From positions 1 through 37,051 of the forward strand of contig JANOCJ010000363.1 of assembly GCA_031412115.1 (NCBI GenBank): a stretch of 37,051 bases of DNA, read 5' to 3'. Position 1 is the first letter of the stretch, and each line of letters begins with the position of its first letter. This DNA comes from Flavobacteriales bacterium (GTDB taxonomy: Bacteria; Bacteroidota; Bacteroidia; CAMBQF01). The notes beneath the pieces are model-generated. The model ran no database searches. It saw only the letters and a program-made list of their open reading frames with translations, and was not told where the DNA came from. Positions 9,301 to 37,051 of this stretch are shown piece after piece. Both the position numbers and the translations under genes were made by a program.

Positions 9301-9302
9301 TG

Positions 9303-9375
9303 TGGTGCGAGAGGGATTCGAACCCCCGACACAAGGATTTTCAGTCCTTTGCTCTACCAACTGAGCTATCGCACC
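9303..9375 (-). tRNA. tRNA-Phe (anticodon GAA)
   Basis: The reverse complement folds as a 73 nt cloverleaf: GGTGCGA-TA-GCTC-AGTTGGTA-GAGC-A-AAGGA-CTGAAAA-TCCTT-GTGTC-GGGGG-TTCGAAT-CCCTC-TCGCACC-A. Confidence 0.93.
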
Positions 9376-18096: not shown

Positions 18097-19818
18097 ATGT
18101 TATCTATTGAGAATGTGCCAGACACTACGTTTAAACTACTGATTAGCACGGCTTTAAAATTTCCGGATAAAATAGCGCTTACAGGCCGTTATAAAGGCGA
18201 AGAGGTATCATACACCTATAGCAAGCTGGTTGAGCTTGCCAAAGCATGTGCTTGCGGCTTACTGGGTTTAGGCCTTAAAAAAGGCGACCATATTGGCATT
18301 ATTACCAACAATAGGGCTGAGTGGTATATATTGGATTTGGCCTCATCGCAACTGGGCATAATTAACGTTACATTATTCCCAAATTACGATGCCCCGGCAC
18401 TAAAACATATATTAACAGATGCAGGAATAAGCTACCTTTTTGTAGCTAATAATTTGCTGTATAAAATGGCAAAACCCGCCCTGCAAGGCGTAAATGGCAT
18501 AAAGGGCATAGTATCGTTTGATGAAGCACCCGATTGTATTCCGTTTAATACCTTGTTAAACAACCCCGCAAACGAGCAATACTCTGCCGAGGTGGAGAAA
18601 ATAAGCAGCACTATAAAGTCTGATGATGTGTATTGCATTTTCTACACATCGGGCACGGGTGGCAACCCCAAAGGGGTTACAACTATGCACAAGGGCATTT
18701 GTTCGGCAGCTGTGTCTATGGGCGCAGCACTGGGGCTTACCGAAAAAGATAAAGCCATTGGCTTCCTTTCCATATCGCACGCGTATGAGCGCGGCCACAA
18801 TTTTGCCTATATGCACTATGGCACCGAAATTTACATTGGCGATATGACCAACGGCCCCATGGAAAATATTGCTAATGCCCAGCCTTCGGTATTTGCATCG
18901 GTACCGTTGATGCTTGAGCGTATTTATGGCGGTATAACAGCCAATGACGTAAATGATGAGGCAGGCAAAAAAGCCTTGGATTTGGCCATTAACTACGAAT
19001 TTGGCGATGAAGAAAAGCCAGAATTTATTGAGGCCCAAAAGAATTATTTTGATAGCTGGAAAAGTAAATTCGGCGCTAATATGCGGGTACTATCGTGTGC
19101 CGGTGCGCCGCTTCCTGCATGGCTTGCACGCTTTTACTGGGCTATAGGTTTGCCTATTTATGAGGTGTACGGCTTAAGCGAATGTTTTTCATTAACCTAT
19201 GGCCGTGGCCGCGAGTATACTAAGTTTGGAACTGTTGGTGCCGTAGCCGAATGGGCCGAAGTAAAAATTGTCGAGGATGGAGAAATACTCTTCCGCGGGC
19301 CTTTTACCATGAAGGGTTTTCATAACCTGCCCGAATATACCAAGCAGGTGTTGGAAGAAGATGGCTGGTTTCACACAGGTGATTTGGGCGAATGGGTTGA
19401 CAAAAAATTTGTGCGCATAACAGGCCGCAAAAAAGATATTTTCAAGGTATCGTCGGGCTACTATGTACACCCACCGCTGGTTGAAGATAAAGTAAATGCT
19501 TCGCCGTATATTGCACGCAGCATAGCGTTTGACCGTGGCGCACGTATTGGGTTAATTGTACAGCCTGAATATGAGTTGCTGGCAAACGAACTGGGCATTG
19601 ATGCAGCAACATTGGCAACGCCGCAACATACAGGCTTGGTGCTAAATAAAATACAGGCCGAGGTAGATAAATATTACAACACTTACGTAATGGAAGCAGA
19701 GCGTATTGCTGAATATTTTATCGACCCAAAACCTTGGACAGTAGAGGGTGGCGAGCTTACGCCCACCATGAAAATTAAACGCGAAATAGTAATTAAAAAT
19801 TTAGAAACAATTAAGTAA
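18097..19818 (+). CDS. AMP-dependent acyl-CoA/acyl-ACP ligase (long-chain fatty acid ligase-like, ANL superfamily)
   Basis: 573 aa. It has the AMP-binding core motif IFYTSGTGGNPKGV plus YGLSE, GWFHTGDLG and the C-terminal LTPTMKIKR. Confidence 0.9.
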   Translation: MLSIENVPDTTFKLLISTALKFPDKIALTGRYKGEEVSYTYSKLVELAKACACGLLGLGLKKGDHIGIITNNRAEWYILDLASSQLGIINVTLFPNYDAPALKHILTDAGISYLFVANNLLYKMAKPALQGVNGIKGIVSFDEAPDCIPFNTLLNNPANEQYSAEVEKISSTIKSDDVYCIFYTSGTGGNPKGVTTMHKGICSAAVSMGAALGLTEKDKAIGFLSISHAYERGHNFAYMHYGTEIYIGDMTNGPMENIANAQPSVFASVPLMLERIYGGITANDVNDEAGKKALDLAINYEFGDEEKPEFIEAQKNYFDSWKSKFGANMRVLSCAGAPLPAWLARFYWAIGLPIYEVYGLSECFSLTYGRGREYTKFGTVGAVAEWAEVKIVEDGEILFRGPFTMKGFHNLPEYTKQVLEEDGWFHTGDLGEWVDKKFVRITGRKKDIFKVSSGYYVHPPLVEDKVNASPYIARSIAFDRGARIGLIVQPEYELLANELGIDAATLATPQHTGLVLNKIQAEVDKYYNTYVMEAERIAEYFIDPKPWTVEGGELTPTMKIKREIVIKNLETIK

Positions 19819-19819
19819 G

Positions 19820-20062
19820 ATGATATATAGCGAAGACAAATTTTTACGCCGCATTGAAGAAGAATTTACCGAGATAAAACCGGGCTCATTAACACCCGAA
19901 TCATCTATGCCAAAAATTATTGAGTGGAACTCAATGAACGTGTTATTATTCCTGGCATTTATATCAGAAGACACCGGCGTGCGCGCCAACTACGATGAGG
20001 TAAAACAGTTTGATACCTTGCACGACTTATATTTATTTTTAGGCGAAAGGGTTACAGCCTAA
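19820..20062 (+). CDS. Putative acyl carrier protein-like small protein
   Basis: 80 aa, acidic, placed between the ligase and KAS III with 1-2 nt gaps. The candidate phosphopantetheine Ser is in EWNSMNVLLFLAFI, where canonical ACPs have DSL/DSM. The assignment rests on position, size and a weak motif only. Confidence 0.5.
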   Translation: MIYSEDKFLRRIEEEFTEIKPGSLTPESSMPKIIEWNSMNVLLFLAFISEDTGVRANYDEVKQFDTLHDLYLFLGERVTA

Positions 20063-20064
20063 CA

Positions 20065-21120
20065 ATGGCTTTATTCAAGGTAAATAACATACGCATTGCA
20101 GGCATTGCAGCAACAGTGCCCAAACGTATTATGTCTAACCTCGACTATGATTTTGTAAGCGAAGAAGAGCGCCAAAAAATTGTTAAAATAACCGGTGTTC
20201 AGGAAAAACGCCGTGCCGACGAAGGTGTTACCGCATCCGACTTATGCATAAAATCGGCCAAAAAGCTGATGGATGATTTGGGCTGGCAGCCCGAAGATGT
20301 GGACGTTTTGGTATTTGTTAGCCAAAGCCGCGATTATATTTTACCCAATACCGCACACCATATACAAGCCCAGCTGGGCCTGCCTAAAACTTGCGCTGCA
20401 TTTGATATTCCGTTGGGTTGCTCAGGGTATGTATACGGGCTTTTTGCCGCCGCAAATACTATGGCAGCGGGCGGGATTAAAAAAGGATTATTCCTTGCGG
20501 GAGAAACACCGCACTTTGTAGTATCAGAAAGGGATAAAGCATCGCACCCATTGTTTGGCGATGCAGGCACAGCTACTGCGCTTGAGTCTAGCCAAGGGGC
20601 ACCTACCATGTATTTTAACCTGCAAAGCGATGGCAGCGGCCTGCAAAGCCTATATGTACCGGGCGGTGGTACACGCTTACCGTTAACCGAAGAAAATAGT
20701 GTAGAAGAAAAAATTAGCGAGGGCATTTACCGTTCAGCAAAACATTTGGTGATAGACGGGGTAAAAGTGTTTGAATTTACCATGCGCGAAGTGCCTGACA
20801 ATGCTACTGCTTTGCTTAACTATGCGGGCAAAAGCACAGATGATGTTGACTGGTTTGTAATGCACCAGGCCAACCTATTGATGATGGAAACGGCGCGCAA
20901 AATTTTACGCATACCAACTGATAAAACCCCCTACTCTATCCGCAACTTTGGCAACACCAGTTCAGCCTCCATCCCACTAACCATTGTAACACAAATTAGT
21001 GCCAATGTATCGTCAGGTAAAAGCAATTGGTTACTTTCGGGCTTTGGTACGGGCTTATCGTGGGGCAGTTGCTATATAGAAACCGGCCCCGTTTACTGCC
21101 CGCCGTTAATTGAATATTAG
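20065..21120 (+). CDS. 3-oxoacyl-ACP synthase III (KAS III / FabH-like)
   Basis: 351 aa. The Cys-His-Asn triad contexts are present: LGCSGYVYG, VMHQANLLM and FGNTSSASIP. Confidence 0.9.
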   Translation: MALFKVNNIRIAGIAATVPKRIMSNLDYDFVSEEERQKIVKITGVQEKRRADEGVTASDLCIKSAKKLMDDLGWQPEDVDVLVFVSQSRDYILPNTAHHIQAQLGLPKTCAAFDIPLGCSGYVYGLFAAANTMAAGGIKKGLFLAGETPHFVVSERDKASHPLFGDAGTATALESSQGAPTMYFNLQSDGSGLQSLYVPGGGTRLPLTEENSVEEKISEGIYRSAKHLVIDGVKVFEFTMREVPDNATALLNYAGKSTDDVDWFVMHQANLLMMETARKILRIPTDKTPYSIRNFGNTSSASIPLTIVTQISANVSSGKSNWLLSGFGTGLSWGSCYIETGPVYCPPLIEY

Positions 21121-21949
21121 GCATTTGGAAACGCTCTCGCTATCTATCGTAATACCCGCTTTTAATACAGGCGCACAGCTAAGTGATTTGGTTGATTCGC
21201 TAACGGTATTCTTCCAAAATAAATTAAATTTTGAGGTAATTATTGTTGATGATTCAGGCAATGAAAATATCCTTTCCTTTAATCACCCTTCTATAAAATA
21301 CTTTAAGCTAAAAAACAACTACGGGCAGCATTTAGCAACGTATTACGGCATTTTGCAAGCCAAAGGCCAGCATATTTTAACACTAGATGATGATGTAATT
21401 TTGCCGGAGCAAAAGCTGGAAATTATAGCATCACGCCTTAACGAGCCTAACGATTTACAGTATTTTGTAAATGATGATTACAACGAAACCGATAAAATAA
21501 AATTTGCCATTATTAAAAATTTCTTTCGCTTTGCATTGTTCCGTACACCACCAAAATATGGCACATCGCAACGGTTGTTTACACACGAATTAGCACAAAA
21601 AATAATAGCACAAAAATACCGCTATATATACTTTGACGCCTTGCTTATGCTTCAATCTGAAAGTAAAACGCATTGTATAAATTATATTGCCAAAAACAAA
21701 TCGCCCGAACTAAAAAACAGGTATAGCCTGTCTAACCGCCTGTTTCTTCTTACCAATTCGTATTTGTTTTACACGCCGCTTGTTGCACAAATTGCATATT
21801 TATGGCTTATAATAGGCGTATGTTTATTAGCCTTTTACGCTACCCCCATTATAGGCTTGTTATTTATTTTTATCTTTATGCTAGCTGCACTATTCACTGT
21901 TTGGGGTTATACAACAGTAGTTACAGCCAATGATATTGAAACGGCATGA
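21110..21949 (+). CDS. Family 2 glycosyltransferase with C-terminal TM helices (polyprenyl-phosphate glycosyltransferase-like)
   Basis: 279 aa with LSIVIPAFN, IIVDDSGNE and LTLDDDV, plus two C-terminal hydrophobic helices. The start is TTG at 21110 or 21125; no ATG is available. Confidence 0.82.
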   Translation: MNIRHLETLSLSIVIPAFNTGAQLSDLVDSLTVFFQNKLNFEVIIVDDSGNENILSFNHPSIKYFKLKNNYGQHLATYYGILQAKGQHILTLDDDVILPEQKLEIIASRLNEPNDLQYFVNDDYNETDKIKFAIIKNFFRFALFRTPPKYGTSQRLFTHELAQKIIAQKYRYIYFDALLMLQSESKTHCINYIAKNKSPELKNRYSLSNRLFLLTNSYLFYTPLVAQIAYLWLIIGVCLLAFYATPIIGLLFIFIFMLAALFTVWGYTTVVTANDIETA

Positions 21950-22575
21950 CGATAGACCTTTACAACATAAAATATACGTTAATTACTGAAGATGATTTAG
22001 AGAAGCTACGCCAATGGCGCAATAGTGAGTATGTACGCTCTAAAATGTTATTTCAAAAAACCATTACACCCGAGGCGCAACTTAACTGGTATAACAGCCT
22101 TGACAAAAGCAAAAATTTCTACTTTATCATATCATCAGGCGGTGTAGAACTGGGCATGTCTAACATCAAAAACATTAATTACGAGAATAAAACCACCGAG
22201 CCAGGCATTTTTTTTATTGACGAAAAATTTTCAAATGGCGAGTTTTCCATCAATTGCGCATTAATAATGATTGAAATATCACTTTACTTTTTTGGGGCCA
22301 AGGAGCTACACTCTATGGCTATGAAAGACAATAAACCGGGCTTTGATTTTAACACCACATTGGGCTTTTTGCCAACGCAAGACCATGCAGACTATGTGGA
22401 TTTTACGCTAACGCGCGAAAATGGGCTAAAAACTACCCAACGCATACGCAAAGCGTTTGCCAAATTGTACAAAACAAGCCCCGATGAAAAGTTGAAAATA
22501 TCTATTGGCAATAACCCTTTTTTGCAACAGGTTTATAATAACTTAGCCGACAAAGAAAATATAGCTTTATGCTAG
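21946..22575 (+). CDS. GNAT N-acetyltransferase, PseH-like
   Basis: 209 aa. LRQWRNSEYVRSKM and the following pattern resemble the PseH-type aminosugar N-acetyltransferase signature. Its start overlaps the upstream stop in an ATGA arrangement. Confidence 0.72.
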   Translation: MTIDLYNIKYTLITEDDLEKLRQWRNSEYVRSKMLFQKTITPEAQLNWYNSLDKSKNFYFIISSGGVELGMSNIKNINYENKTTEPGIFFIDEKFSNGEFSINCALIMIEISLYFFGAKELHSMAMKDNKPGFDFNTTLGFLPTQDHADYVDFTLTRENGLKTTQRIRKAFAKLYKTSPDEKLKISIGNNPFLQQVYNNLADKENIALC

Positions 22576-23339
22576 CTAAAGAAGACTTTATACTGACCAT
22601 ACTGGAGCGCGGCTTTTACCTTGCCAAAAACGTTTTAACGCCCGATTTTGCTAAGCAACTGGCGGCGCATTTAGAAAATAGCATTGAGAAAGAAAATGCT
22701 TTTCACCAAGGGAAAGACCACCCTACTTTTGGGGCCTTACTTAATACTGCATTGTATGGCGGGCCTTTTTTAGACTTGTTGGAAAATGAAAATTTTGTCC
22801 AACCATTTAAGTGGTTTATTGCCGATAATTGCATTATTTATTCCTATTCATCGGCATCGGTGCCGCCAAATAGTAAAATATACACAGCCCGCATCCACGT
22901 TGATTCGCACAGAAAATCGACCGACCACCGTTTGGTGCTTGGGGCTATGGTTTTTTTAACAGGTTTTACTGAAGAGAATGGCTCGCCATATTACTTAGCA
23001 GGTTCACACAAAACAGCAGAGAAGCCGGATGAGGAATATTTTTACAAAAATGCCGATAAAATAGTGGGCGAAGCGGGCGATATATTTTATTTTGACCCCT
23101 TAGTTTGGCACACCGGCAGCTACAACGAAACTAATGATTGGCGCCATGCGCTAACCATAGGCTTTTGCGAGCCTTGGATGAAACAGCGCTTTGATTTCCC
23201 GCGAGTTTTAACCCAAAACGGATTGGATAAAACGATGACAGAAAACCAAAAACATTTACTTGGTTTTTATTCGCAGCCGCCCGTTACCTACGACGATTTT
23301 TATCAAAACACTTACCGATATAACCAAAAGATAGCTTAG
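22569..23339 (+). CDS. Phytanoyl-CoA dioxygenase (PhyH) family Fe(II)/2-oxoglutarate oxygenase
   Basis: 256 aa with IHVDSH (HxD), a distal His in LVWHTGSYN and a downstream Arg (WRHAL). Confidence 0.72.
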   Translation: MLAKEDFILTILERGFYLAKNVLTPDFAKQLAAHLENSIEKENAFHQGKDHPTFGALLNTALYGGPFLDLLENENFVQPFKWFIADNCIIYSYSSASVPPNSKIYTARIHVDSHRKSTDHRLVLGAMVFLTGFTEENGSPYYLAGSHKTAEKPDEEYFYKNADKIVGEAGDIFYFDPLVWHTGSYNETNDWRHALTIGFCEPWMKQRFDFPRVLTQNGLDKTMTENQKHLLGFYSQPPVTYDDFYQNTYRYNQKIA

Positions 23340-24319
23340 TGAAGAAAAAGGCGCTAACATTTGCTAAGCTGTTTCGCATTGCCGACTGGTGGAACTACCT
23401 TATTCCGCCAATATTGTGTTTTGTATACATTGGCTGTTTAAATAATACGCTGCCTTTTAAAGAGAGTATTTTGCCCTGTATAGTAATGTTGGTATCATCT
23501 ATAATAACGGCCTCATTCGGGTTTTATATAAACGATTTATTTGATATTAAAGATGATGCGCTGGCCGGCAAACACAACCAAATTGGGCAGCTAAACAGGG
23601 CATACCGCATACCACTGCTAATTATTCTTACACTATTATCTATTGCCCCGTGGCTACTTACCGATATTGATTTGCATATAAAAGCCTTGCTTATTGCACA
23701 ATATGTATTTTTTATAGGCTACTCTGCACCGCCCTTCAGGCTTAAGAAAAACAAGATATTTGCCTTGCTGCTCGACTCATTATACAGCGGTACCTTGTTT
23801 TATATTATTGCCCTGCTGGTAACCAACAATAACAAATACGTACACCCTTATTTAGTGTATGTTTTATTATTCTGCTGGGGATTTTCTAAGGGGTTACGCA
23901 ATATTTTATTACACGTTATTTTAGACAAAGAGAACGATGAAAAAGCAGACACCAAAACGCTTGCAACGCATTTGCCGCTATACAAATTGTTAAATTTTAT
24001 TTCGTACATAATTATACCACTTGAGGTAACATTTTTTGTTTTACTAATGTGGTTTTTGCTACTAAACTCAAAAGCAGCACTGTTTATTATAATTGGCTAT
24101 GGTTGCTTTTTGCTGTACTTACTTGTAAAACCACTGTTTTTAAAAGATAAGCACGGCCTAATTACTTTTTATCGCCTGAACGATTTTTACGAGATAGTTT
24201 TGCCCGGCCTCATACTGCTAATGCTGGCATACACCATAGATTACCGCTACCTGATAATACTGGCTATACATTATATTCTTTTCCCAAGGGTGTTGCTAAA
24301 ATTGAAAAAAGCATTGTAG
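23339..24319 (+). CDS. UbiA-family prenyltransferase (integral membrane)
   Basis: 326 aa with about 8 hydrophobic helices. The first Asp-rich motif is NDLFDIKDD (NDxxDxxxD) and the second is DKENDEKAD. The GTG start overlaps the upstream stop. Confidence 0.8.
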   Translation: MKKKALTFAKLFRIADWWNYLIPPILCFVYIGCLNNTLPFKESILPCIVMLVSSIITASFGFYINDLFDIKDDALAGKHNQIGQLNRAYRIPLLIILTLLSIAPWLLTDIDLHIKALLIAQYVFFIGYSAPPFRLKKNKIFALLLDSLYSGTLFYIIALLVTNNNKYVHPYLVYVLLFCWGFSKGLRNILLHVILDKENDEKADTKTLATHLPLYKLLNFISYIIIPLEVTFFVLLMWFLLLNSKAALFIIIGYGCFLLYLLVKPLFLKDKHGLITFYRLNDFYEIVLPGLILLMLAYTIDYRYLIILAIHYILFPRVLLKLKKAL

Positions 24320-24364
24320 CTACTTTTAAACCTCTGCTGTTTTTAGCTATGTTTGCTGCTGTAG

Positions 24365-25183
24365 ATGAGCAATGGCAACAACATAATTAATGGTTTGTGG
24401 ATAGGCAGCACGCTGTCGTCGCTAGAACTAATTACCATTAACTCATTTATTGCCAACGGCCATACGTTTAAGCTGTGGGCCTACGAACCTATAAAAACTC
24501 CACTACCGCAAGGCGTAGTTATTGCTGATGCTTCGGAAATTATTCCGGCAAGCTATATTTTTAGGTACAAACACAACAACCAGTTTGGCCACGGAAAGAA
24601 TAGCTTGGCAGGATTTTCAGACCTTTTTCGATATAAACTGCTATATGAAAAAGGCGGCTGGTGGGTTGATATGGATGTAACCTGCTTAAAGCCTTTTGAT
24701 TTTGAAGCAGAATATGTTTTTCGTAACCACCATAAGCTGCTAATGGTTGGCAACATTATGAAATGCCCGCAGGGCAGTGAGTTAATGCTACAATGCTACG
24801 AAGAAGCCAAAGGACAGGTTAATGCCGAAAACCGCGACTGGATGTTGCCCATTACGATATTGAATAATAATATTCTAAAACTAAATCTGGAAAAATACAT
24901 TATTGAGCTATCAAATAAAGATAGCTGGTACGATATACGCAACTTTTTCAGGCGAAAATTAAATGCGCCAAACCATTGGTATGCCTTACATTGGAATAAC
25001 GAAGAATTGGGCAGAAACAGCGTAAACAAAGCATCGCACGTGGCAAATTCACTTTACGGTGAGCTTATAAAAAAATACGGCATTCAGAATATATTGCTAA
25101 CCGGAGTTGATGCTGCTAAGTACCGTTTTAAGCTGAGTTTAACCTTTTTTGTGGTTAATTATTTTTACAAACGCTTTCTATAA
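24365..25183 (+). CDS. DXD-motif glycosyltransferase (GT32 / Gly_transf_sug-like)
   Basis: 272 aa. FSDLFRYKLLYEKGGWWVDMDV is the sugar-binding DXD region typical of this family. Confidence 0.72.
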   Translation: MSNGNNIINGLWIGSTLSSLELITINSFIANGHTFKLWAYEPIKTPLPQGVVIADASEIIPASYIFRYKHNNQFGHGKNSLAGFSDLFRYKLLYEKGGWWVDMDVTCLKPFDFEAEYVFRNHHKLLMVGNIMKCPQGSELMLQCYEEAKGQVNAENRDWMLPITILNNNILKLNLEKYIIELSNKDSWYDIRNFFRRKLNAPNHWYALHWNNEELGRNSVNKASHVANSLYGELIKKYGIQNILLTGVDAAKYRFKLSLTFFVVNYFYKRFL

Positions 25184-27058: not shown

Positions 27059-27093
27059 TGCCTTAAGCTTGAGTTTTATTATATTTGCTAACT

Positions 27094-29493: not shown

Positions 29494-29653
29494 ATGTATT
29501 AGGATTTATCACAATGTATTTACTATAATTTTAACAACCAATAATCCTATGTTAAGATTTTGGTACATAAACACAATACGCTGATTTTTAAGCTATTGAA
29601 TTTTAGTTATATACTAAAAATTAAATTATAGTTTATGCGCACGAAATTTACAA

Positions 29654-31144
29654 TTACTCAAGCAGATAGCCTTCAATTTTATCTATAAACTTAGTATTAT
29701 CAAATATCTCCGTGTCGTATTTAATCCACTCAAAAGGCAATGCATTTAGCTTAACAAGTATTTTATGTTTATCTGTTTGAGCATCCAAAAAATTCACAAT
29801 CAAATTATTAAACTTGTTAAGCGAAAGGATAAATTCATCAGGGTTTAGCGCATGCATATAGCTAAATATTTCTTCTATTTTAGCTAAAAAAATTTGCAGC
29901 AAAATATCATCGCTTACAGCATCCAGCCGGTCAATTTCCTGCTGGCGTGTAATAGCTACTGTGGCCCAGCTTTGCACTTGTTTAATAAACCCTGCAATAA
30001 CTGTAGCATTGTGTTTTTCAAAAAAATTGTTTTGGGTAGGGGTGTATGCCGTTAATACATTTTCAATGGCTTTCAACTTATCGTGGCTCAACGTCCACAA
30101 CGATTGTACTGCAGGTTGCATAACCGTATTAATATTAAGCAACGCGCCTATTTTATTGGCAAACTCAAGCACCTGCGGTAACTCGTTCCAGTTGCTGCGC
30201 AAAGGGCAAAAGCTTAGGGTAAGAAAAGTATTCTTCTTACGCGAGTATTCTGCTAGAAATTGAATATTCTCTATAACCCTATCGTAATTGGCGTTTACGC
30301 GTATGGCTTCGTATGTTTTTTTGTTGAATGAATCAATAGATATTCCAATGTGAAAATTGCCTTTCTCCAACAGGTTTTTTACCTTGGCATTCATAACCGT
30401 AGCATTGGTTTGCAAGCGTATTTCGCAGTTGGGGTTTAAAGTGATTATCTTCTCCCAAATGCTGTAATAGCTATCAATTAAAAATGGCTCGCCTCCCAAA
30501 AAATTAGCCACTTTAAGGTGGGGTATGTATTCATCCAATTGGGCTAAAAACTCAGCACCATAGGGCGAAATAATTGGTGCTTTATGCTCCCTATTTTTAC
30601 GTATGGATGATGAAAATTCGCCCGAGCACATAATACACTCAAGGTTACAGGTGTTTGATAATTCAAAGTCGAAACGCGTAGGGTATTGTGGCTCATCTTC
30701 GGCCTCATAATCATATTTAGCCGCCATTACCGATGAGTAATCGCCCGCAACCAATTGTTGCTTGCAAAGCTGGCAGCCGCCGCCTAAGTCAAAATTATCA
30801 ATGCGCTCTCGCAGTTCATTTGCTTTAGCGCCTTTCCATATTTGAGATATACTGTTTTCCGGATAAAACCCTAACGGCACATCACGGTTATAGCAGCAGG
30901 CCATTACCTTTCCATCAATAGCAAAATACATGTTGTTAAAGGGCGCATAGCACACCTTTTTACCCGGTCCAAACTTGCGGCTTTTGTAATAAGCTTTTAC
31001 ATTTTTCTCAGGCAACGTTCCCTCCGGAACATTGACTGTTGGCAGAAAAGCGTTACGGCCAAATTGGTATACAGATGTTGCCACCTCAAACATTTTGGGT
31101 GGTAAAACCTGTGCTACTTTTTTTATAAATCGGGCCTTGGGCAT
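29654..31144 (-). CDS. Radical SAM enzyme with N-terminal SPASM/twitch-like Cys motif (paralog 2)
   Basis: 496 aa. The core is ELSNTCNLECIMCSG with LGGEPFL. It is preceded by CYAPFNNMYFAIDGKVMACC and GCQLC. Its ATG abuts the stop of the upstream PhyH gene. Confidence 0.88.
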   Translation of the reverse strand: MPKARFIKKVAQVLPPKMFEVATSVYQFGRNAFLPTVNVPEGTLPEKNVKAYYKSRKFGPGKKVCYAPFNNMYFAIDGKVMACCYNRDVPLGFYPENSISQIWKGAKANELRERIDNFDLGGGCQLCKQQLVAGDYSSVMAAKYDYEAEDEPQYPTRFDFELSNTCNLECIMCSGEFSSSIRKNREHKAPIISPYGAEFLAQLDEYIPHLKVANFLGGEPFLIDSYYSIWEKIITLNPNCEIRLQTNATVMNAKVKNLLEKGNFHIGISIDSFNKKTYEAIRVNANYDRVIENIQFLAEYSRKKNTFLTLSFCPLRSNWNELPQVLEFANKIGALLNINTVMQPAVQSLWTLSHDKLKAIENVLTAYTPTQNNFFEKHNATVIAGFIKQVQSWATVAITRQQEIDRLDAVSDDILLQIFLAKIEEIFSYMHALNPDEFILSLNKFNNLIVNFLDAQTDKHKILVKLNALPFEWIKYDTEIFDNTKFIDKIEGYLLE

Positions 31145-32014
31145 TTAGTTGCGCTGTTTAGCAAAGTACCTATAAAAATTGATAAGGTTGAGATTAGCCT
31201 TTTGCAAAGGCTCATGTCGCAACAAACGGTATTTGGCTGATGGGCGTTTGGTAATTTCTTCGGTATAAAAAAACTCGGGTGTAATATCAAAAACATCAAC
31301 CATACCTGCCGGTGTTTGCGCATCGGTAAAATAGTGGCAATAAGGGCTGGCCTTGGGCTTTACCAAGCCGTTTACCGCAAGTCTATAGTTGCTTGTTTGG
31401 TTTGGTGGCGATGAATGTATCATAGCACTATGAAAGATAACCGCTTGGCCCGCCTTTACCATGAGGGGTTTCATAAAGCGGTACATTACCAAATAGTACG
31501 GTATTTTATTAAACTCCCACGGCACGTTTAGCGAGCGTTGCTTATTGCCTAACTTATGGCTGCCCGGCAAAATATGCAGGGTACCATTCTGCATGGTAGT
31601 ATCCTCTAGCGGGCACCAAATGTACACAGCCAAAAACTGCTCTTCATCAACATGCGAACTATCTTGATGCGGGTTTAATTTGCTTTTGCTGCCGGGTGGT
31701 TTTATTTGGTGCACACCCGAAATAAAATCAATTTCGTCAGCAATAAAATACTTTGCAATGCCCTGTTGGTAGTATTTGCGTATAATTTGGGTAGATAGCA
31801 TTCGCATTTCAGCCTCGGGTATGCGCCCGGCAGATTGAAACGTTTTAACGCTACCAAAGCCATTCTCCAACAGCTTATCCATCATCTCGCCTGACTCTCT
31901 CCTCAACCCTTCTATCCCTTCATTATCAATAAAATTTACTATGGCATAACCCTGCTCCTCAATGGTTTGTTGAAGTGCTTCATCTTTAAAAATTTGTGGG
32001 TAGCGCGTTGCCAT
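31145..32014 (-). CDS. PhyH-family Fe(II)/2OG oxygenase (array member 5 of 5 in transcription order)
   Basis: 289 aa with NPHQDSSHVDE (HxD), WCPLEDTTMQNGTLHILPGSH, MIHSSPPN (distal His) and Arg in NYRLAV. Confidence 0.78.
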   Translation of the reverse strand: MATRYPQIFKDEALQQTIEEQGYAIVNFIDNEGIEGLRRESGEMMDKLLENGFGSVKTFQSAGRIPEAEMRMLSTQIIRKYYQQGIAKYFIADEIDFISGVHQIKPPGSKSKLNPHQDSSHVDEEQFLAVYIWCPLEDTTMQNGTLHILPGSHKLGNKQRSLNVPWEFNKIPYYLVMYRFMKPLMVKAGQAVIFHSAMIHSSPPNQTSNYRLAVNGLVKPKASPYCHYFTDAQTPAGMVDVFDITPEFFYTEEITKRPSAKYRLLRHEPLQKANLNLINFYRYFAKQRN

Positions 32015-32016
32015 TG

Positions 32017-32874
32017 TTATAAACTATTATACGCTTTATCAAACTGCTCGGCTGTTAGGTAATTTTCTTTAAACGGCACAGTTTCGGCTTGAAATACTCC
32101 GTTTGGTGTATCAATTGTTTGCGAGTACAAGGCATCGGCAAAGTCTTTGCCGGTATTGTAATTCATAAAAAAATCATAATCTACCACGTACTTATTTAGC
32201 ACATTGGGCTGCGCTGCGTTGCGTACATAATGGTATACCTTATCATTGGCCGGAAGCATAAGCAAACCTGCCGAAACACGGGTATTTAACGTATGATTAG
32301 GGCCTGATGCATGCAACATAGCCTGCGTAAAAATCACTGCTTTGCCGGCAGGTAATTCTAAGCGCTTTTTGTATTTACGTTCTATGTACTTTTTAATATG
32401 GTCGTGCTCTTGCGGAACATTTGCACCGCGCAAGGCGCGCAGTATGCGGTGCGATTTTGGCACTACCTGCAAGCAGCCGTTCCATTTATCTACATCAACC
32501 AAAGGGCACCAAATAAATATGGATTGATATTGGCTTTCATCAACAAAAGTCCAATCCTGATGCACGGTTATTTTATCAAAAAAACTGGGCTTTTTAATCA
32601 GCACGTCCGAGAAAAAAGGGGCGTAATTTGAATGGAACAATGATTTTACTTTCTTTCCAAAAGCTTCTTTAATAAGGCGGTCTACGGTTAGCCTGTATTC
32701 TTTATTACTGCTCCACAACGATGCGTAAAAGCGTTTCTTCACTCCCGAATCCAGCTTCAATAATTTGGTACGTAAGGCATCGCATTCGTCCCTGTTTAGT
32801 ATATCTACCGTAACAAAGCCATTTTCTTTAAACTCGTGGTCTAAAGCCGTATCGTTAAAAATTTGCGCCAGCAT
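32017..32874 (-). CDS. PhyH-family Fe(II)/2OG oxygenase (array member 4)
   Basis: 285 aa with VHQDWTFVDE, WCPLVDVDKWNGCLQVVPKSH, LHASGPN and NTRVS. Confidence 0.78.
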   Translation of the reverse strand: MLAQIFNDTALDHEFKENGFVTVDILNRDECDALRTKLLKLDSGVKKRFYASLWSSNKEYRLTVDRLIKEAFGKKVKSLFHSNYAPFFSDVLIKKPSFFDKITVHQDWTFVDESQYQSIFIWCPLVDVDKWNGCLQVVPKSHRILRALRGANVPQEHDHIKKYIERKYKKRLELPAGKAVIFTQAMLHASGPNHTLNTRVSAGLLMLPANDKVYHYVRNAAQPNVLNKYVVDYDFFMNYNTGKDFADALYSQTIDTPNGVFQAETVPFKENYLTAEQFDKAYNSL

Positions 32875-33701
32875 TATTGGTTAATGTATTTTAACAATTC
32901 CTCCTTGCTCAGTTCAATGTGCTTATTCTCTTTGTGGCCAATAGGTTTAGCTCCTTCGGGGCGGGTTTCTTTTACAAAATTTTCGTAAAAATCAAGCCCA
33001 ATTTCATACACTTCCACCATCTCTTTTGGTAAAAATTTATCCCAGTAATACATAATGGTTTGCACGTCTTTAGGCACCATATCTATCCGCAATGAAACAC
33101 GTGGGCTATCGGCATTGTTGGGTGCTGAATAATGCAATGAACGATTGATAAAAACCAAGGCATCACCGGCTTTCATAGGCACCAATGTCATATGGCTTTT
33201 CTCAAAATAATCGTATAGTTCTTCGTAATAACGTTTAACACCCGGGCCACGTACTTTATTCATAAACTTGTGGCTGCCCCTAAGCATTTGCAGCGCGCCG
33301 TTGTTGGCATCAACATCGCTAAAAGGTATCCACACCACGCACGATTCGTACTTGCTTTCATCTACGCAACTTATATCAAAGTGCATATTTACCTTCGATT
33401 TTTTGCCCTTTGTTTTTACTACAAAGTTGCCGGTCATAGGTACATAATCATTCAAATATATCTCTGCCGAACGGCTAATTGCCTTGCGTATAGACTGGTT
33501 TACGTGGTTTTTATAATTGGGGTCGCTACTATCAATCGTTGAATAATACTTGCGGTCAATATTAGGGTCGTAGCTTTGGTAGGCATTGCGAATAAACTCG
33601 AGTTCCTCAGAATTCAAAAAATTTTTAAATACAACAAACCCGTCATTTTCAATTTGGGTGTTAAAAGTATCCTCCCTAAATATTTTGCGTACACTATCCA
33701 T
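32874..33701 (-). CDS. PhyH-family Fe(II)/2OG oxygenase (array member 3)
   Basis: 275 aa with MHFDISCVDE, WIPFSDVDANNGALQMLRGSH, LHYSAPN and SPRVS. Its stop and the next start overlap as TAATG. Confidence 0.78.
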   Translation of the reverse strand: MDSVRKIFREDTFNTQIENDGFVVFKNFLNSEELEFIRNAYQSYDPNIDRKYYSTIDSSDPNYKNHVNQSIRKAISRSAEIYLNDYVPMTGNFVVKTKGKKSKVNMHFDISCVDESKYESCVVWIPFSDVDANNGALQMLRGSHKFMNKVRGPGVKRYYEELYDYFEKSHMTLVPMKAGDALVFINRSLHYSAPNNADSPRVSLRIDMVPKDVQTIMYYWDKFLPKEMVEVYEIGLDFYENFVKETRPEGAKPIGHKENKHIELSKEELLKYINQ

Positions 33702-33703
33702 CG

Positions 33704-34534
33704 CTAACTTAACTCGTTATAAAATTCCTGCTCTGTTAAAAAATTGTTTTGCTGTTTTACTTTGCCCCTGTATGGTGCATTTTCAGGGGTGCTGCGTTTA
33801 TCATACACATCAAAAAACTGCTCATCAACCCCATAGATTTTTATGCCGCTAAAGGGCCAAAAACGGTTGTTGTAATACAGCACACATTCAACACCCTTGG
33901 GCTTGCACGCTATAATAATAGCAGGCCTTTCGGCACTACTTTTATTGTTTGGCGAGTAATGCAGCAGCGCATTGTGGTAAAACAACCCATCGCCTTTTTT
34001 CATTGGCAACGGTTTTAATAAAGGGCTGTTTAACAAGCCCGGGTAATACTGAGTATAGTACTCTTTAACCCAAGGCCCGCGGGCTTTGTTGGTTATTTTA
34101 TGGCTGCCTTCAATTACGTGCATACAACCGTTAGTCTCGTTTACATCAACCAAAGGGCACCAAACAGTAAGCGATTGGTAATGCGTCTCGTCATAAATGC
34201 TCCAGTCGGTGTGCATAGCTACCACGCTTTGGCTGGCGGGCTTTTTGGTGATGAAGCCTGTATAAAACGCTTGGTAATCTTTACAATATTTTTCTATCTG
34301 CCCGTTTTGCAAAACTGACTTTATGCCACGGTCAACGTACTTGCGGTACTCGGCATCGCCACTGTCGGTAGATGCGTAAAAACCGCGCTGCACTTTGCTG
34401 TCGGCGCTATTAAACATAGCAAACAAAGCAGCAATATCATCGTCGGTCAAAAAAGGCTGTATTACGTAGCCCTTTGCAACAAACGTTTCATTCAATTCTT
34501 TATTTGTAAAAACAGGTATCATAACCCTAGCCAT
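33704..34534 (-). CDS. PhyH-family Fe(II)/2OG oxygenase (array member 2)
   Basis: 276 aa with MHTDWSIYDE, WCPLVDVNETNGCMHVIEGSH, LHYSPNN and AERPA. An alternative start at Met5 (34522) abuts the methyltransferase stop exactly and aligns better with the paralog N-termini. Confidence 0.78.
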   Translation of the reverse strand: MARVMIPVFTNKELNETFVAKGYVIQPFLTDDDIAALFAMFNSADSKVQRGFYASTDSGDAEYRKYVDRGIKSVLQNGQIEKYCKDYQAFYTGFITKKPASQSVVAMHTDWSIYDETHYQSLTVWCPLVDVNETNGCMHVIEGSHKITNKARGPWVKEYYTQYYPGLLNSPLLKPLPMKKGDGLFYHNALLHYSPNNKSSAERPAIIIACKPKGVECVLYYNNRFWPFSGIKIYGVDEQFFDVYDKRSTPENAPYRGKVKQQNNFLTEQEFYNELS

Positions 34535-35304
34535 TTTAAAAAGCCGCTACCTTCGGCGGGCTTTATTAACCGTAGTTCCAGCCATTCGGCGGGGGCAAAT
34601 TCTTTCAGCCCTTTGTAATTATCTATACCGAATTTATCTTCGAACTTGCGGCGTATTTCTATGTCAGAATTAAAGCTGATGTGCTTGATGTAATCAATTT
34701 CAAAACCGCATTGGCGAAAGGCATCTAACGTTTGCGAAAGCCCTAAAGTGCTATAGCTGTAGTTAACGTTCATGTTTTTTATCACCTCGTTTATGCGGGT
34801 CTGTGCAGCTTCATCTAACGATATTTTGTAAAAAAAATCTTTTATGTAAACAAAAGCGCCGGGCTTTAATACCTCGTAAACGCCTTGTACCACTTGGGCT
34901 ACATTGCTTGCATGCCCCAGCGATTCAAGAAACAACGCACCATCAAAAGTGTTTTGTTTGAAGTATTGCGGCAGGTTGTGGTAATCGCCTTCGGTAACGT
35001 CAATTATCTTATCAAGCCTACGGGCATTAACGCGCTGTTTTGCAATGCCTGCCTGCTGTGGCGATACAGTTAAACAACTGAATTTTACGCCTGCCTTTTC
35101 GGCCATGGCAATAGCAGGGCCGCTTACACCCGAACCTGCATCCAGTATATGCTGGCCTTTTTGCAAGCCTGCATTTTGGGCGGTATAGGTTGCCAACTCA
35201 CCATCGCTGGTGGGGCGAAACGCCTGTATTACATCGCCATACACGTCAAGGTACTTTACCGTCCACTCGTCGTAGTATTGCTTTACTTCCTCAACAGTTG
35301 CCAT
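34519..35304 (-). CDS. Class I SAM-dependent methyltransferase (SMT/CFA-synthase-like N-terminal YYDxW...YG pattern)
   Basis: 261 aa with QYYDEWTVKYLDVYGDVIQAF, motif I ILDAGSGVSGPA and a later acidic/loop LFLESLGH. Confidence 0.82.
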   Translation of the reverse strand: MATVEEVKQYYDEWTVKYLDVYGDVIQAFRPTSDGELATYTAQNAGLQKGQHILDAGSGVSGPAIAMAEKAGVKFSCLTVSPQQAGIAKQRVNARRLDKIIDVTEGDYHNLPQYFKQNTFDGALFLESLGHASNVAQVVQGVYEVLKPGAFVYIKDFFYKISLDEAAQTRINEVIKNMNVNYSYSTLGLSQTLDAFRQCGFEIDYIKHISFNSDIEIRRKFEDKFGIDNYKGLKEFAPAEWLELRLIKPAEGSGFLKWLGL

Positions 35305-35306
35305 TG

Positions 35307-36167
35307 TTATGCTGTCTCCAAACCGGCGTTAGCCATTATCTCTTTAAACTTTTTGTAGTTGATGCGTGGGTGCTGATACTCTACCACACGGCTGCTTTTT
35401 ACCTCCTTCGGCTCCTCTTTAATATGAAAATTAAAGTTCAGAAAGAAGTCTTGGTCAACCAAAAGCTCGCGGTATTCGGTTTTAAACAACGATTTTTTGC
35501 GATAGTAATGTATAGCAGGGGCCACTATAGGCTTGGCTATTACCTGTATTACCAAACGGGCATAGCCGCCTTGGTTTGGTTTTGAATAATGGATAATGCT
35601 ATCGTCAAAAATCAAGGCCTCGCCAGCTTTTACGGTTACCGGTTTTAGGTAATCGTGCTTCAACTCCTCAATATACCCTTTAAAAAACCAAGGGATTGTT
35701 GGGCTGCGGTGTATGTTGCGAAAGGTGCGATGCGTACCGGGAATAAACTCCAACGCGCCGCTGTTTTCGCCCACATCAACCAAAGGGGCCCAAACCGATA
35801 CTGAGGTAAATTTATGCTCATCAACAAAGTCCCAGTTTTGGTGTACGGGTACTTCGCCAAGGCCGTGTTCTTTATTTACAAAATTTATAACCAAAGGCTC
35901 GTAGCCGTTTAAATACTTATCAAGCGCGGGGGCAAATACTTTAGAGAGGGTTTCAAACACCTTGCGTTTATACTCCCTATTCGAATCGAGAAAAGAGAAA
36001 TGGTAGCTAACGCTTTTATCCTGTGTGTTAAAACGCTCGTTGGGTTTTTGCTCTTCGTGAAAGCGGCGCAGTTCGGCTATTGTTTCTTCGTCAAACAGCT
36101 TCACTTTTACATAGCCCATTTTATCAAACTCCGCCTGTAACTTATCGTCTAGTAATACTCTGTGCAT
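35307..36167 (-). CDS. PhyH-family oxygenase-like protein with HxN in place of HxD (array member 1)
   Basis: 286 aa. VHQNWDFVDE aligns with VHQDWTFVDE and MHTDWSIYDE of the paralogs. The codons CAC CAA AAC were read on the minus strand at 35843-35835. WAPLVDVGENSGALEFIPGTH, IHYSKPN and YARLV are retained. Confidence 0.78.
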   Translation of the reverse strand: MHRVLLDDKLQAEFDKMGYVKVKLFDEETIAELRRFHEEQKPNERFNTQDKSVSYHFSFLDSNREYKRKVFETLSKVFAPALDKYLNGYEPLVINFVNKEHGLGEVPVHQNWDFVDEHKFTSVSVWAPLVDVGENSGALEFIPGTHRTFRNIHRSPTIPWFFKGYIEELKHDYLKPVTVKAGEALIFDDSIIHYSKPNQGGYARLVIQVIAKPIVAPAIHYYRKKSLFKTEYRELLVDQDFFLNFNFHIKEEPKEVKSSRVVEYQHPRINYKKFKEIMANAGLETA

Positions 36168-36187
36168 GGTTTCAATAATTTAAAACT

Positions 36188-36195
36188 CAAAGATA
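36188..36195 (-). promoter_or_regulatory. Candidate -7 box (TAnnTTTG) for the PhyH/methyltransferase/radical SAM operon
   Basis: Plus-strand CAAAGATA is minus-strand TATCTTTG. It lies 20 nt upstream of the ATG at 36167, within the 78 bp gap. Confidence 0.3.
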
Positions 36196-36245
36196 ATGTA
36201 CTAAAATAAGCAAAAAGTATGATAATTGTCAATAAAAGGTGATTT

Positions 36246-37051
36246 TTACTCCTCCGCCTTTTGGTTGGCATTGCCTCTTTTATCAAACAAGTGGGTAAAC
36301 TCATCAACCGTATTTACCTGCTTAACAAAAGGCAGCTTTTTAATGCTTTTTTGGTTGGTTACCAGTTTAATGTAGTTAACTATATAAACAGTAGCGCCTT
36401 GGGCCTGTTCGGGCTTCTCAGCTTTAAACTTTTTAATATGGTAGTTGGCCCAAAAAATGGCCATATCGTGCTGATTTTTTTTGTTGTACCAAGTGCGCAC
36501 AAAATATAGAAAATACTTCTCAAGCGTTGGGGGCGTATACACCGGTTTATTGGGCAAAGCAACCTCATCATTAAACACCGAGCGCATGGGCTGTAGGCTA
36601 TCTTTTTGGTACTCAAGTGTTATCCACCCTACATTGGCCATAGGGTTGGGCGCATACATACCCCAGTGTTGCCCAAAGGGGCTTAATTCTTTTAGCGGAA
36701 AGTTGCGCGTATCAAGCACAAAGCGCCCGCCATTTTTAGGGAGGAATGATTTTTTTAGCGGGGTATGAAACACATAAAACATAAGGTTCATAAAGACCAT
36801 ACCGGCAATACTGGCAATAAGGATGTTGCGGGAAACATTACCTAAATTAGCGTAGGGTGTTTTTGAAGTAATTGACGGTATTTGCTTAATACGTAGGCGC
36901 AGTTTCTCCCAAAAAGAAGCAGGCAAAAACAGGGTTGCCATAGTTATAGATATGTAGGAAAAAGTACCCACATCAGAAAACATTAAAATACCAACATGCA
37001 ATGCATAAACCAGTAAAATAGCGGCATAACGCAGGCCATTGCCTTTGCTAA
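36246..37051 (-). CDS. Polytopic membrane protein, 5'-truncated by the window edge (possibly HTTM/gamma-carboxylase-like domain)
   Basis: The tracked ORF starts at TTG 37001, but the same frame stays open to nt 37051 (...SKGNGLRYAAILLVYALHVGILMF...), so the gene probably begins outside the window. The hydrophobic N-terminal part and the HWGMYAPNP motif faintly recall HTTM-domain proteins. The family call is tentative. Confidence 0.55.
   Translation of the reverse strand, partial: SKGNGLRYAAILLVYALHVGILMFSDVGTFSYISITMATLFLPASFWEKLRLRIKQIPSITSKTPYANLGNVSRNILIASIAGMVFMNLMFYVFHTPLKKSFLPKNGGRFVLDTRNFPLKELSPFGQHWGMYAPNPMANVGWITLEYQKDSLQPMRSVFNDEVALPNKPVYTPPTLEKYFLYFVRTWYNKKNQHDMAIFWANYHIKKFKAEKPEQAQGATVYIVNYIKLVTNQKSIKKLPFVKQVNTVDEFTHLFDKRGNANQKAEE

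Follow-up and report, generated by a model that had tools for sequence, protein, structure and literature searches.

A two-armed radical SAM locus, probably of envelope glycoconjugate type, is inherited as one unit in uncultured Bacteroidota

The stretch of DNA analysed here (the window) comprises 37,051 nt of contig JANOCJ010000363.1 in assembly GCA_031412115.1 of a Flavobacteriales bacterium (forward strand, positions 1 to 37,051; GTDB lineage Bacteria; Bacteroidota; Bacteroidia; CAMBQF01). It carries a two-armed locus of about 20 genes that several uncultured Bacteroidota inherit as a single unit, and the locus is probably of the envelope glycoconjugate or glycolipid biosynthetic type, built around an uncharacterised family of radical S-adenosylmethionine (SAM) enzymes. 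The product is most likely an envelope lipid that is acylated, prenylated, glycosylated and heavily oxidised and is made through an uncharacterised pathway, and we regard it as evenly balanced whether the locus acts as one conserved unit that makes a membrane-anchored, glycolipid-type envelope product.

A previous reading made from the letters of the window (the sequence-only reading) had placed about 20 genes in two arms between 18097 and 37051. The open reading frame (ORF) map returned the same coordinates, with eight plus-strand genes (18097-25183), eleven minus-strand genes (25155 to the window end) and a further plus-strand gene embedded in the minus arm (27085-28098). Scoring of the 20 proteins against Pfam and NCBIfam profiles bore out the family assignments that had been proposed. 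The features of the locus, together with the receptor gene upstream of it, are as follows:

15291-18029, minus strand: TonB-dependent outer-membrane receptor (CarboxypepD_reg, Plug and barrel by Pfam), divergent from the ligase gene
18097-19818, plus strand: ANL-superfamily acyl-AMP/acyl-CoA ligase of a cluster-specific clade (PF00501, AMP-binding, 216 bits)
19820-20062, plus strand: small acyl-carrier-like protein of 80 aa (weak PDB matches and an invariant Ser)
20065-21120, plus strand: FabH-like condensing enzyme, beta-ketoacyl-acyl carrier protein synthase III (KAS III; NF006829, 243.5 bits against a cutoff of 249)
21110-21949, plus strand: family 2 glycosyltransferase (GT2) with a C-terminal hydrophobic hairpin (PF00535, 63.7 bits)
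21946-22575, plus strand: GNAT N-acyltransferase, weakly PseH-like (Acetyltransf_3, 24.4 bits)
22569-23339, plus strand: PhyH-family Fe(II)/2-oxoglutarate (2OG) oxygenase of HxD type, paired with the GNAT gene (PF05721, 58.9 bits; H110-V-D)
23339-24319, plus strand: UbiA-superfamily membrane prenyltransferase (Asp-rich motifs, topology and profile matches)
24365-25183, plus strand: GT32 glycosyltransferase of DXD type (PF04488, 32 bits; D102-M-D motif)
25155-26303, minus strand: GT4 glycosyltransferase (Glyco_trans_1_4, 101 bits; Glyco_transf_4, 72 bits)
26300-27058, minus strand: DUF4184 integral-membrane protein with several hydrophobic segments (PF13803, 123.5 bits)
27085-28098, plus strand: secreted all-helical protein of a very narrow family (signal peptide; AlphaFold2 (AF2) model)
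28054-29493, minus strand: radical SAM enzyme with an N-terminal twitch (auxiliary Fe-S) domain, paralog 1 (NF033640, 167.8 bits)
29494-29653, no strand: AT-rich intergenic spacer of 160 nt between the radical SAM genes (conserved blocks in a four-locus alignment)
29654-31144, minus strand: radical SAM enzyme with an N-terminal twitch domain, paralog 2 (NF033640, 167.1 bits)
31145-32014, minus strand: PhyH oxygenase 1, HxD (PF05721, 72 bits)
32017-32874, minus strand: PhyH oxygenase 2, HxD (PF05721, 76 bits)
32874-33701, minus strand: PhyH oxygenase 3, HxD (PF05721, 70 bits)
33704-34534, minus strand: PhyH oxygenase 4, HxD (PF05721, 80 bits)
34519-35304, minus strand: class I SAM-dependent methyltransferase (Methyltransf_11, 47 bits; CMAS, 38.5 bits)
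35307-36167, minus strand: PhyH-family protein of an HxN clade (H109-Q-N motif)
36246-37051, minus strand: HTTM-domain polytopic membrane protein, of which the window holds the C-terminal half, the frame being open at the window end

Comparison with metagenomic relatives (L001/L090, L087, L089, L088 and L002/L091, of which L001 and L090, and L002 and L091, form pairs) revealed that the two arms co-occur, so that the refuting condition set beforehand, an absence of conserved synteny, does not hold. L001/L090, L087 and L089 are colinear with the window over both arms at about 70% protein identity (range 54-90%) and 65-72% nucleotide identity, while L088, whose radical SAM enzyme is 43% identical, keeps the convergent junction (UbiA and GT32 facing GT4 and DUF4184) followed by the secreted-protein gene in the opposite direction. 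At about 44% identity, L002/L091 retains nearly all families in a rearranged order, distributed over a receptor-ligase-carrier-KAS III-GT2-GNAT-PhyH block, a GT4/GT2/GT32 block, a block of PhyH, methyltransferase, four PhyH and two radical SAM genes, and a block of UbiA with a GT-C glycosyltransferase bearing tetratricopeptide repeats (TPR). The GNAT-PhyH gene pair is likewise kept in L001, L087, L089 and L002.

Natural gene fusions further join genes that lie in different arms of the window. In P0011 (L085:7804-10224), a GT32 domain is fused N-terminally to an N-twitch radical SAM enzyme, and this domain is 53% identical to the window GT32 over its full length (E 3e-99); the operon that encodes it is minimal, comprising Wzm, Wzt, a radical SAM enzyme, UbiA and the fusion. 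UbiA-GT4 fusions were found directly after a radical SAM gene at L080:11290-13593 and in its L065 homolog, and their UbiA part matches the UbiA family profile (hhalign probability 100, E 4e-44).

Beyond these close relatives, a scan of species-representative genomes returned 512 relatives of the radical SAM enzymes, mostly from Bacteroidota and usually neighboured by UbiA, GT32, Wzm/Wzt and GT-C genes. The best 80 of the 512 come almost entirely from uncultured Bacteroidota (Chitinophagales, Saprospiraceae, Flavobacteriales and Crocinitomicaceae), none of them with more than 50% identity. All ORFs of the loci were clustered, and among the 45 genome loci that span 19 kb or more the neighbours of the radical SAM gene included an unnamed 400-aa protein (20 loci), AsnS (19), UbiA (17), Wzt (13), a PMT_2+TPR GT-C enzyme (11) and GT32 (9); the window UbiA itself clusters with UbiA genes adjoining a radical SAM gene in 24 loci. 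A recurrent operon runs from an optional methyltransferase through UbiA, an AsnB-type amidotransferase, a short-chain dehydrogenase/reductase (SDR) epimerase and the radical SAM enzyme to the unnamed 400-aa protein, and continues with either GT32 or a GDSL, GT8-like and PMT_2+TPR GT-C series. The latter form occurs in about 20 Bacteroidota metagenome-assembled genomes (MAGs), for example at L010:5791-18663 and in L024, L034 and L041. Wzm/Wzt ABC-2 transporters often lie near the recurrent operon, which varies in its additional genes (among them sulfotransferases, a carbamoyltransferase, B12-radical SAM enzymes and a P450). Of 79 loci, 14 contain a PhyH array, which can reach ten copies and sometimes comes with WelO5-like proteins. 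The unnamed 400-aa partner carries an invariant, DxD-like YCYLDTDV motif; it gave no family match, and its PDB search gave spurious acyl carrier protein fragments alone.

The 20 gene calls of the sequence-only reading all held, whereas the extent of 18097-37051 proved too narrow at both ends: the conserved unit spans from the TonB-dependent receptor at 15291 to past the window end, and the window carries most of it. The receptor, which likely starts at the ATG at 18029 and not at the GTG at 18149, has a counterpart in the same divergent position in L090, on the L001 contig (77% identity). A second counterpart in L091, on the L002 contig, is 44.5% identical, co-directional and located 10 nt upstream of the ligase gene. 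A divergent receptor-ligase pair also adjoins a UbiA-AsnS-radical SAM-GT32 operon in the Saprospiraceae MAG of L053. At the other end, the final gene (36246-37001) had been taken as a membrane-protein gene; it does encode a membrane protein but is incomplete, as the frame is open to base 37049, and the fragment represents the C-terminal 267 aa of a protein of about 500 aa. It is 65% identical to residues 239-502 of the 502-aa protein at L001:3318-4826, which matches the HTTM profile PF05090 at 28.7 bits (cutoff 27.7), and the L089 ortholog (505 aa) also carries an HTTM match. The HTTM family includes vitamin-K carboxylase and SdpB. The gene after HTTM in L089 and L001 codes for a protein of roughly 650 aa that has about ten hydrophobic segments and carries TPR repeats at its C-terminus; the L001 version (654 aa) shows homology to the PMT_2+TPR GT-C family (hhalign probability 100, E 8e-74) and is followed by a leucine-rich repeat (LRR) protein. 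HTTM, LRR, GT-C/TPR and DUF4184 proteins were also seen to travel together beside radical SAM/PhyH arrays in otherwise different loci (L081:539-6901 and L001:453-4826), and L081 holds two HTTM paralogs and nine PhyH genes.

The sequence-only reading was correct in naming two radical SAM paralogs, albeit its description was incomplete: by their domain layout, the window enzymes appear to be members of an uncharacterised N-terminal-twitch family, which in relatives is mostly found in Wzm/Wzt glycan-type loci. Both paralogs align over nearly the whole NF033640 model ('twitch domain-containing radical SAM protein') and score just under its curated cutoff of 170 bits. Paralog 1 shares 39% identity with paralog 2 and carries a CNLECVMC motif at residue 166. 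Across 28 homologs, the cysteines of the CxxxCxxC core (Cys166/170/173) and Cys65, Cys83, Cys124 and Cys127 are invariant, the latter four falling within a Cys-rich auxiliary domain (residues 62-130) that precedes the core. The AF2 model of paralog 2 (predicted local distance difference test, pLDDT, 87) displayed helical termini, a long helical C-terminal domain and no RiPP recognition element (RRE), where RiPP denotes a ribosomally synthesised and post-translationally modified peptide. Foldseek comparison of this model with the PDB matched the generic core alone (SkfB, SuiB, BlsE, viperin, MoaA and anSME; template modelling score, TM, about 0.33), PDB sequence searches gave nothing better than viperin (E about 0.003), and our literature search found no paper on the N-twitch family. 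The 160-nt spacer between the two genes holds no ORF of at least 30 aa on the operon strand and is non-coding in four loci; it contains conserved blocks and probably serves as an internal promoter or as a regulatory region. A scan for promoters and terminators returned counts equal to the shuffled expectation and was thus uninformative; it used a sigma-70 consensus unsuited to Bacteroidota.

The plus arm opens with a compact acyl module, and its genes follow one another as had been described, at 2 nt or less or with overlaps, apart from a single 45-nt gap. The ORF coordinates agree exactly, with gaps of 1 nt (ligase to carrier) and 2 nt (carrier to KAS III), overlaps of 11 nt (KAS III and GT2), 4 nt (GT2 and GNAT), 7 nt (GNAT and PhyH) and 1 nt (PhyH and UbiA), and the 45-nt gap between UbiA and GT32. 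Cluster-linked homologs of the ligase are 43-87% identical to it, versus at most 35% for housekeeping long-chain ligases, and the ligase also matches the exosortase-associated ligase family TIGR03098 at 126 bits, far under the family cutoff. For the 80-aa protein no Pfam match was obtained; nine PDB entries matched it weakly, eight of them acyl carrier proteins with full-length alignments (E 0.065-0.56), and its Ser38, within a W-N/S-S-M/L motif, is invariant across five loci. The catalytic triad of KAS III is intact (Cys118/His267/Asn296). A flexirubin or dialkylresorcinol assignment failed, as KAS III scored 21.6 bits on the DarB/StlD model NF005293 (cutoff 450) and NCBIfam profiles detected no DarA-like gene in the locus. 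The position of the acyl module is taken in L088 by three OlsC/LpxO-like hydroxylases of lipid acyl chains (90 and 59 bits). The hydrophobic stretch of GT2 spans residues 219-274, and the protein weakly matches ArnC (35 bits); this architecture resembles that of GtrB/ArnC-type polyprenyl-phosphate sugar synthases, and GT2 may accordingly supply a lipid-linked sugar donor. GNAT scored 49.4 bits on the PseH model TIGR03585, under the cutoff of 93.

The prenyltransferase possesses about nine hydrophobic segments and two Asp-rich motifs, NDLFDIKDD at residue 65 and DKENDEKAD at residue 196, both conserved in 21 homologs. Several orthologs carry a PF01040 match in precomputed gene tables, and the best PDB matches of the family profile are AfUbiA (4tq3), chlorophyll synthase and digeranylgeranylglyceryl phosphate synthase (DGGGPS, 6m31). 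Chlorophyll synthase and DGGGPS both prenylate an oxygen atom. The profile retrieved no phosphoribosyltransferase from the PDB at E up to 10. Downstream, GT32 and GT4 are convergent and overlap by 29 nt. The best NCBIfam match of GT4 is TIGR03088, the XrtA-system exopolysaccharide (EPS) glycosyltransferase family, at 93 bits, far under the cutoff.

The locus encodes six PhyH-family proteins. The paralogs are 21-31% identical to PhyH1 (31145-32014), and five of the six possess the HxD motif, the distal His and the 2OG-binding Arg, whereas the protein at 35307-36167 has HxN. Its HQN is also present in the L001, L002 and L088 orthologs and in all nine more distant homologs inspected (HQNW), and the HxN clade could represent a non-canonical catalyst or a non-catalytic partner subunit. 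Many homologs retrieved from a library of 1.84 billion proteins are fusions of two or three PhyH domains, which argues that the tandem genes act together on one substrate; in the two fusions read from the homolog set P0247-P0284 (P0247 and P0249), the HxN domain comes first and HxD domains follow. The closest solved structures to the PhyH profile are human PHYH, MysH, SnoK and EvdO2, which do not fix the substrate class, and its PDB matches also include AndA, PrhA, SptF and FtmOx1. PhyH2 and PhyH3 weakly match the 'sporadic carbohydrate cluster' oxygenase family. A halogenase role for the window genes was rejected, as none of them (five HxD, one HxN) bears HxA/G. WelO5-like proteins of relatives (L002:13143-14015, L081:15201-16118 and L082:1541-2440) do bear the HxG...H signature of Fe/2OG halogenases, which makes it probable that the product is halogenated in some relatives.

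DUF4184 is conserved in L001, L087, L088, L089 and L081 and shows a weak, distant relationship to Zn-dependent phospholipase C (PF00882, 29.5 bits). The secreted protein has no Pfam, NCBIfam or PDB sequence match, and its family is tiny (six homologs found), yet it occupies the same place in L001, L087, L089 and L088, that is, in five loci with the window. Its AF2 model (pLDDT 71) is all-helical and weakly resembles (alpha/alpha)6 barrels; Foldseek returned no match at E of 0.001 or below, the top weak match being the type II terpene cyclase MstE (E 0.1, TM 0.32). The 75-aa ORF on the minus strand at 27063-27290 overlaps, on the opposite strand, the beginning of the conserved gene for the secreted protein and is for that reason most likely spurious.

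Starting from the gene content, catalytic motifs, synteny and fusions observed here, we infer the substrates, the order of the steps and the product as follows. The ligase would load a carboxylic acid onto the dedicated carrier protein, KAS III would extend or condense the loaded acyl unit, and GNAT would move an acyl group to a head-group amine. The UbiA enzyme would add a prenyl chain; GT32 and GT4 would add sugars from nucleotide donors at the cytoplasmic face, and the GtrB-like GT2 together with the GT-C/TPR enzyme would add a sugar from a polyprenyl-phosphate donor at the outer face of the inner membrane. Tailoring at several C-H positions would fall to the six PhyH-type oxygenases, the methyltransferase and the two N-twitch radical SAM enzymes. 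A lipid character of the product is suggested by the dedicated ligase-carrier-KAS III set, the proximity of the UbiA profile to AfUbiA, chlorophyll synthase and DGGGPS, and the acyl hydroxylases of L088. The sequence-only reading had envisaged a lipid- or prenyl-anchored glycoconjugate that is acylated, methylated and repeatedly oxidised, which still appears to be the best reading and has gained support from the fusions, the OlsC/LpxO-like hydroxylases of L088 and the GT-C partners of the relatives. Its view that the locus fits no pathway that could be named also held, as PDB sequence and fold searches and the literature gave no characterised counterpart; a literature search on DUF4184, HTTM, N-twitch radical SAM enzymes and combinations of PhyH, radical SAM and UbiA found no paper describing such a locus.

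Several points weigh against a glycolipid product. Every chemical step had to be inferred, and all relatives are metagenomic. Window-type loci lack a prenyl-diphosphate synthase, nucleotide-sugar genes and a recognisable flippase, and most relatives of the radical SAM/UbiA/GT32 core lie in polysaccharide-like contexts with Wzm/Wzt, a nucleoside diphosphate (NDP)-sugar epimerase, AsnB and GDSL genes. The window UbiA itself scored 29.9 bits on PF01040, under the Pfam cutoff of 34.2, and the assignments of GNAT as PseH-like and of GT2 as GtrB-like are weak, drawing on low scores and topology.

Under the main rival explanation, which we consider unlikely, the locus would be a polysaccharide-decoration module that tailors O-antigen-like or EPS sugars assembled and exported elsewhere, with UbiA, GT2 and GT-C providing a polyprenyl-phosphate-linked side-branch sugar, as in the Gtr, Arn and polyprenyl-phospho-arabinose (DPA) systems. 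The core relatives would fit such a role, as they sit with Wzm/Wzt, NDP-sugar epimerases, DegT, AsnB-type amidotransferases, GDSL esterases, a carbamoyltransferase and sulfotransferases, as would the XrtA-system EPS family match of GT4, the exosortase-associated match of the ligase, the carbohydrate-cluster matches of PhyH2 and PhyH3, and a secreted helical protein that may be an (alpha/alpha)6 hydrolase or lyase such as EPS operons contain. However, neither the 20 proteins of the window nor the colinear relatives include an initiating phosphoglycosyltransferase, Wzx/Wzy, Wzm/Wzt or Wza/Wzc. Wzm/Wzt is confined to more distant canonical relatives, and nucleotide-sugar biosynthesis genes are absent from 15291-37051, with epimerase and DegT genes in distant relatives only. 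A set of five to ten oxygenases, with halogenases in addition, is difficult to reconcile with a sugar polymer, and the lipid acyl hydroxylases of L088 also speak against one. The sequence-only reading had likewise listed polyketide synthase (PKS) and nonribosomal peptide synthetase (NRPS) modules, Wzx/Wzy/Wza, nucleotide-sugar genes and DarA/DarB as missing, and Pfam and NCBIfam profiles found none of them in the locus.

The co-inherited TonB-dependent receptor, and in particular its co-directional position 10 nt upstream of the ligase gene in L091, would be accounted for if the product were a diffusible secondary metabolite (a prenylated or acylated glycoside, a meroterpenoid-like lipid) that is secreted and then sensed or re-imported by the receptor. 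WelO5-type HxG halogenases and a P450 fusion in relatives point the same way, the combination of UbiA, a methyltransferase and PhyH-type dioxygenases recalls meroterpenoid pathways, and MstE is the top fold match of the secreted protein. We judge this possibility quite improbable, as the conserved unit lacks PKS, NRPS, an NRPS-independent siderophore (NIS) synthetase and a clear exporter (the ABC gene at 13302-15062 is only 26-29% identical to its counterparts), GT-C/TPR, HTTM and DUF4184 suggest membrane or periplasmic processing, and the MstE match is weak.

Very improbable, in our assessment, is a RiPP or protein-modification system in which the radical SAM/SPASM-type enzymes, the oxygenases, the glycosyltransferases and an SdpB- or vitamin-K carboxylase-like HTTM protein act on a peptide or secreted protein. 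The radical SAM enzymes do match the SPASM domain and weakly resemble peptide maturases, the HTTM family takes in vitamin-K carboxylase and SdpB, and TPR, LRR and conserved secreted proteins are present. RiPP tests nevertheless failed: no precursor gene adjoins the maturase, no PqqD-like RRE was detected either by the tests or as a fold in the confident AF2 model, and the Cys-rich domain is N-terminal and not a C-terminal SPASM domain. A RiPP precursor was sought between the radical SAM genes and elsewhere in the locus and none was found; the spacer is non-coding and no conserved small ORF exists in the locus, in agreement with the sequence-only reading, which had seen no convincing precursor. 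In relatives, moreover, the radical SAM enzyme is fused to GT32 and accompanied by Wzm/Wzt and sugar-nucleotide genes.

Base composition bears on whether the arms belong together at all. The impression that 21110-25183 is more AT-rich than 18097-21120 was confirmed by computation (GC 0.378 vs 0.445), but the mosaic assembly that had been read from it was rejected, because GC at third codon positions (GC3) is nearly flat (0.42-0.44 in seven of the eight plus-arm genes, with GT2 alone low at 0.343) and relatives at 65-72% nucleotide identity are colinear and have the whole arrangement in common; the GC gap mostly reflects the amino-acid composition of membrane and Lys/Asn-rich proteins. That two unrelated arms became adjacent by chance or by recent mosaic assembly, as the GC difference and their convergent orientation might suggest, is effectively excluded by the flat GC3, by an arrangement that persists down to about 45% protein identity, and by the fusion proteins that link genes of both arms.

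For the glycolipid reading, a broader view can be put forward tentatively, although we hold it to be on balance doubtful: a Bacteroidota-wide, uncharacterised pathway family (N-twitch radical SAM, UbiA-type prenyltransferase and GT32/GT4) would make a new class of prenyl-anchored envelope glycolipid, diversified by lineage through PhyH arrays (including the HxN clade), halogenases, sulfotransferases and acyl modules, with a radical SAM chemistry on lipid or sugar that is not yet described. If this is true, an undescribed family of modified envelope lipids or glycoconjugates would be made by a large, predominantly uncultured section of the Bacteroidota, including the Chitinophagales, Saprospiraceae and Flavobacteriales that abound in soil, water and wastewater. 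It would also provide the first functional context for a radical SAM family of 512 relatives, for DUF4184 and bacterial HTTM proteins, and for a 2OG-oxygenase-like clade without the carboxylate ligand. The tailoring genes swapped in by relatives (lipid acyl hydroxylases, WelO5-type halogenases and sulfotransferases) make up variable sets that suggest surface diversification, which could matter for interactions with phages, predators or hosts. The natural fusions (GT32-radical SAM, UbiA-GT4 and multi-domain PhyH) offer ready handles for biochemical reconstitution, and the P0011 operon could be the simplest starting point.

Upstream of the conserved unit, the window holds a low-GC island (2459-9375; 0.31-0.36) with a resolvase (3121-3744), a tyrosine integrase (7642-8892) and a helix-turn-helix (HTH) protein, bracketed by tRNA-Cys (2459-2534) and tRNA-Phe (9302-9375). 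The island is probably an integrated mobile element unrelated to the locus. It is followed by a second TonB-dependent receptor (9438-12104), a lamin-tail-domain protein sorted by the type IX secretion system (T9SS; 12173-13180) and an MsbA-like ABC exporter (13302-15062), which scored 492 bits on TIGR02203 (cutoff 602). At 26-29% identity, the exporter groups weakly with ABC genes beside radical SAM/PhyH arrays in L081 and L068; given this low identity, and as it was not seen in the contigs of close relatives, it was not accepted as a dedicated exporter.

Among known systems, the Gtr and Arn pathways are paralleled by the placement of a GT2 with a C-terminal membrane hairpin beside an N-acyltransferase, which recalls the N-formylated 4-amino-4-deoxy-L-arabinose (Ara4N) step of Arn, and by a PMT_2-like GT-C enzyme beside the locus in L001, L089 and L002, where the GT-C gene falls past the window end. 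In contrast to those systems, neither the window nor its relatives encode a GtrA or ArnE/F-type flippase, ArnA, ArnB and ArnD are missing, UbiA, GT32, GT4, two radical SAM enzymes and six oxygenases are present in addition, and the GT-C enzyme has TPR repeats like the TMTC enzymes. The DPA pathway of mycobacteria and Pseudomonas likewise pairs a UbiA-family enzyme, the DPPR synthase, with GT-C arabinosyltransferases and also includes DprE1/E2, and an SDR epimerase is present in the canonical relatives; however, the UbiA profile of the locus lies nearest to AfUbiA, chlorophyll synthase and DGGGPS and does not point to an Rv3806c-like enzyme, as no phosphoribosyltransferase was retrieved, no FAD-dependent DprE1-like gene appears in any locus table, and no gene related to phosphoribosyl pyrophosphate (PRPP) was seen in window-type loci.

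XrtA/PEP-CTERM EPS loci share with the window the family matches of the ligase (TIGR03098, 126 bits) and GT4 (TIGR03088, 93 bits), and AsnB-type genes are common in relatives. All of these scores are far under the cutoffs, though, an exosortase, PEP-CTERM proteins, Wza/Wzc and a polymerase are missing, and radical SAM enzymes, a PhyH array and UbiA are foreign to those loci. Fungal and cyanobacterial meroterpenoid pathways also combine UbiA, a methyltransferase and several PhyH-type oxygenases, in line with the presence of AndA, PrhA, SptF and FtmOx1 among the PhyH profile matches; unlike them, the locus has neither a PKS for an aromatic core nor a confident cyclase, and it possesses four glycosyltransferase types and radical SAM enzymes. 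With the SPASM/twitch radical SAM enzymes (BtrN, anSME, SkfB and SuiB), which include the nearest Foldseek cores, the window enzymes share the CxxxCxxC core and a Cys-rich auxiliary-cluster domain, whereas they differ in the N-terminal position of that domain, the lack of an RRE, the TM of about 0.33, the long helical C-terminal domain and a genomic context of glycan and lipid genes.

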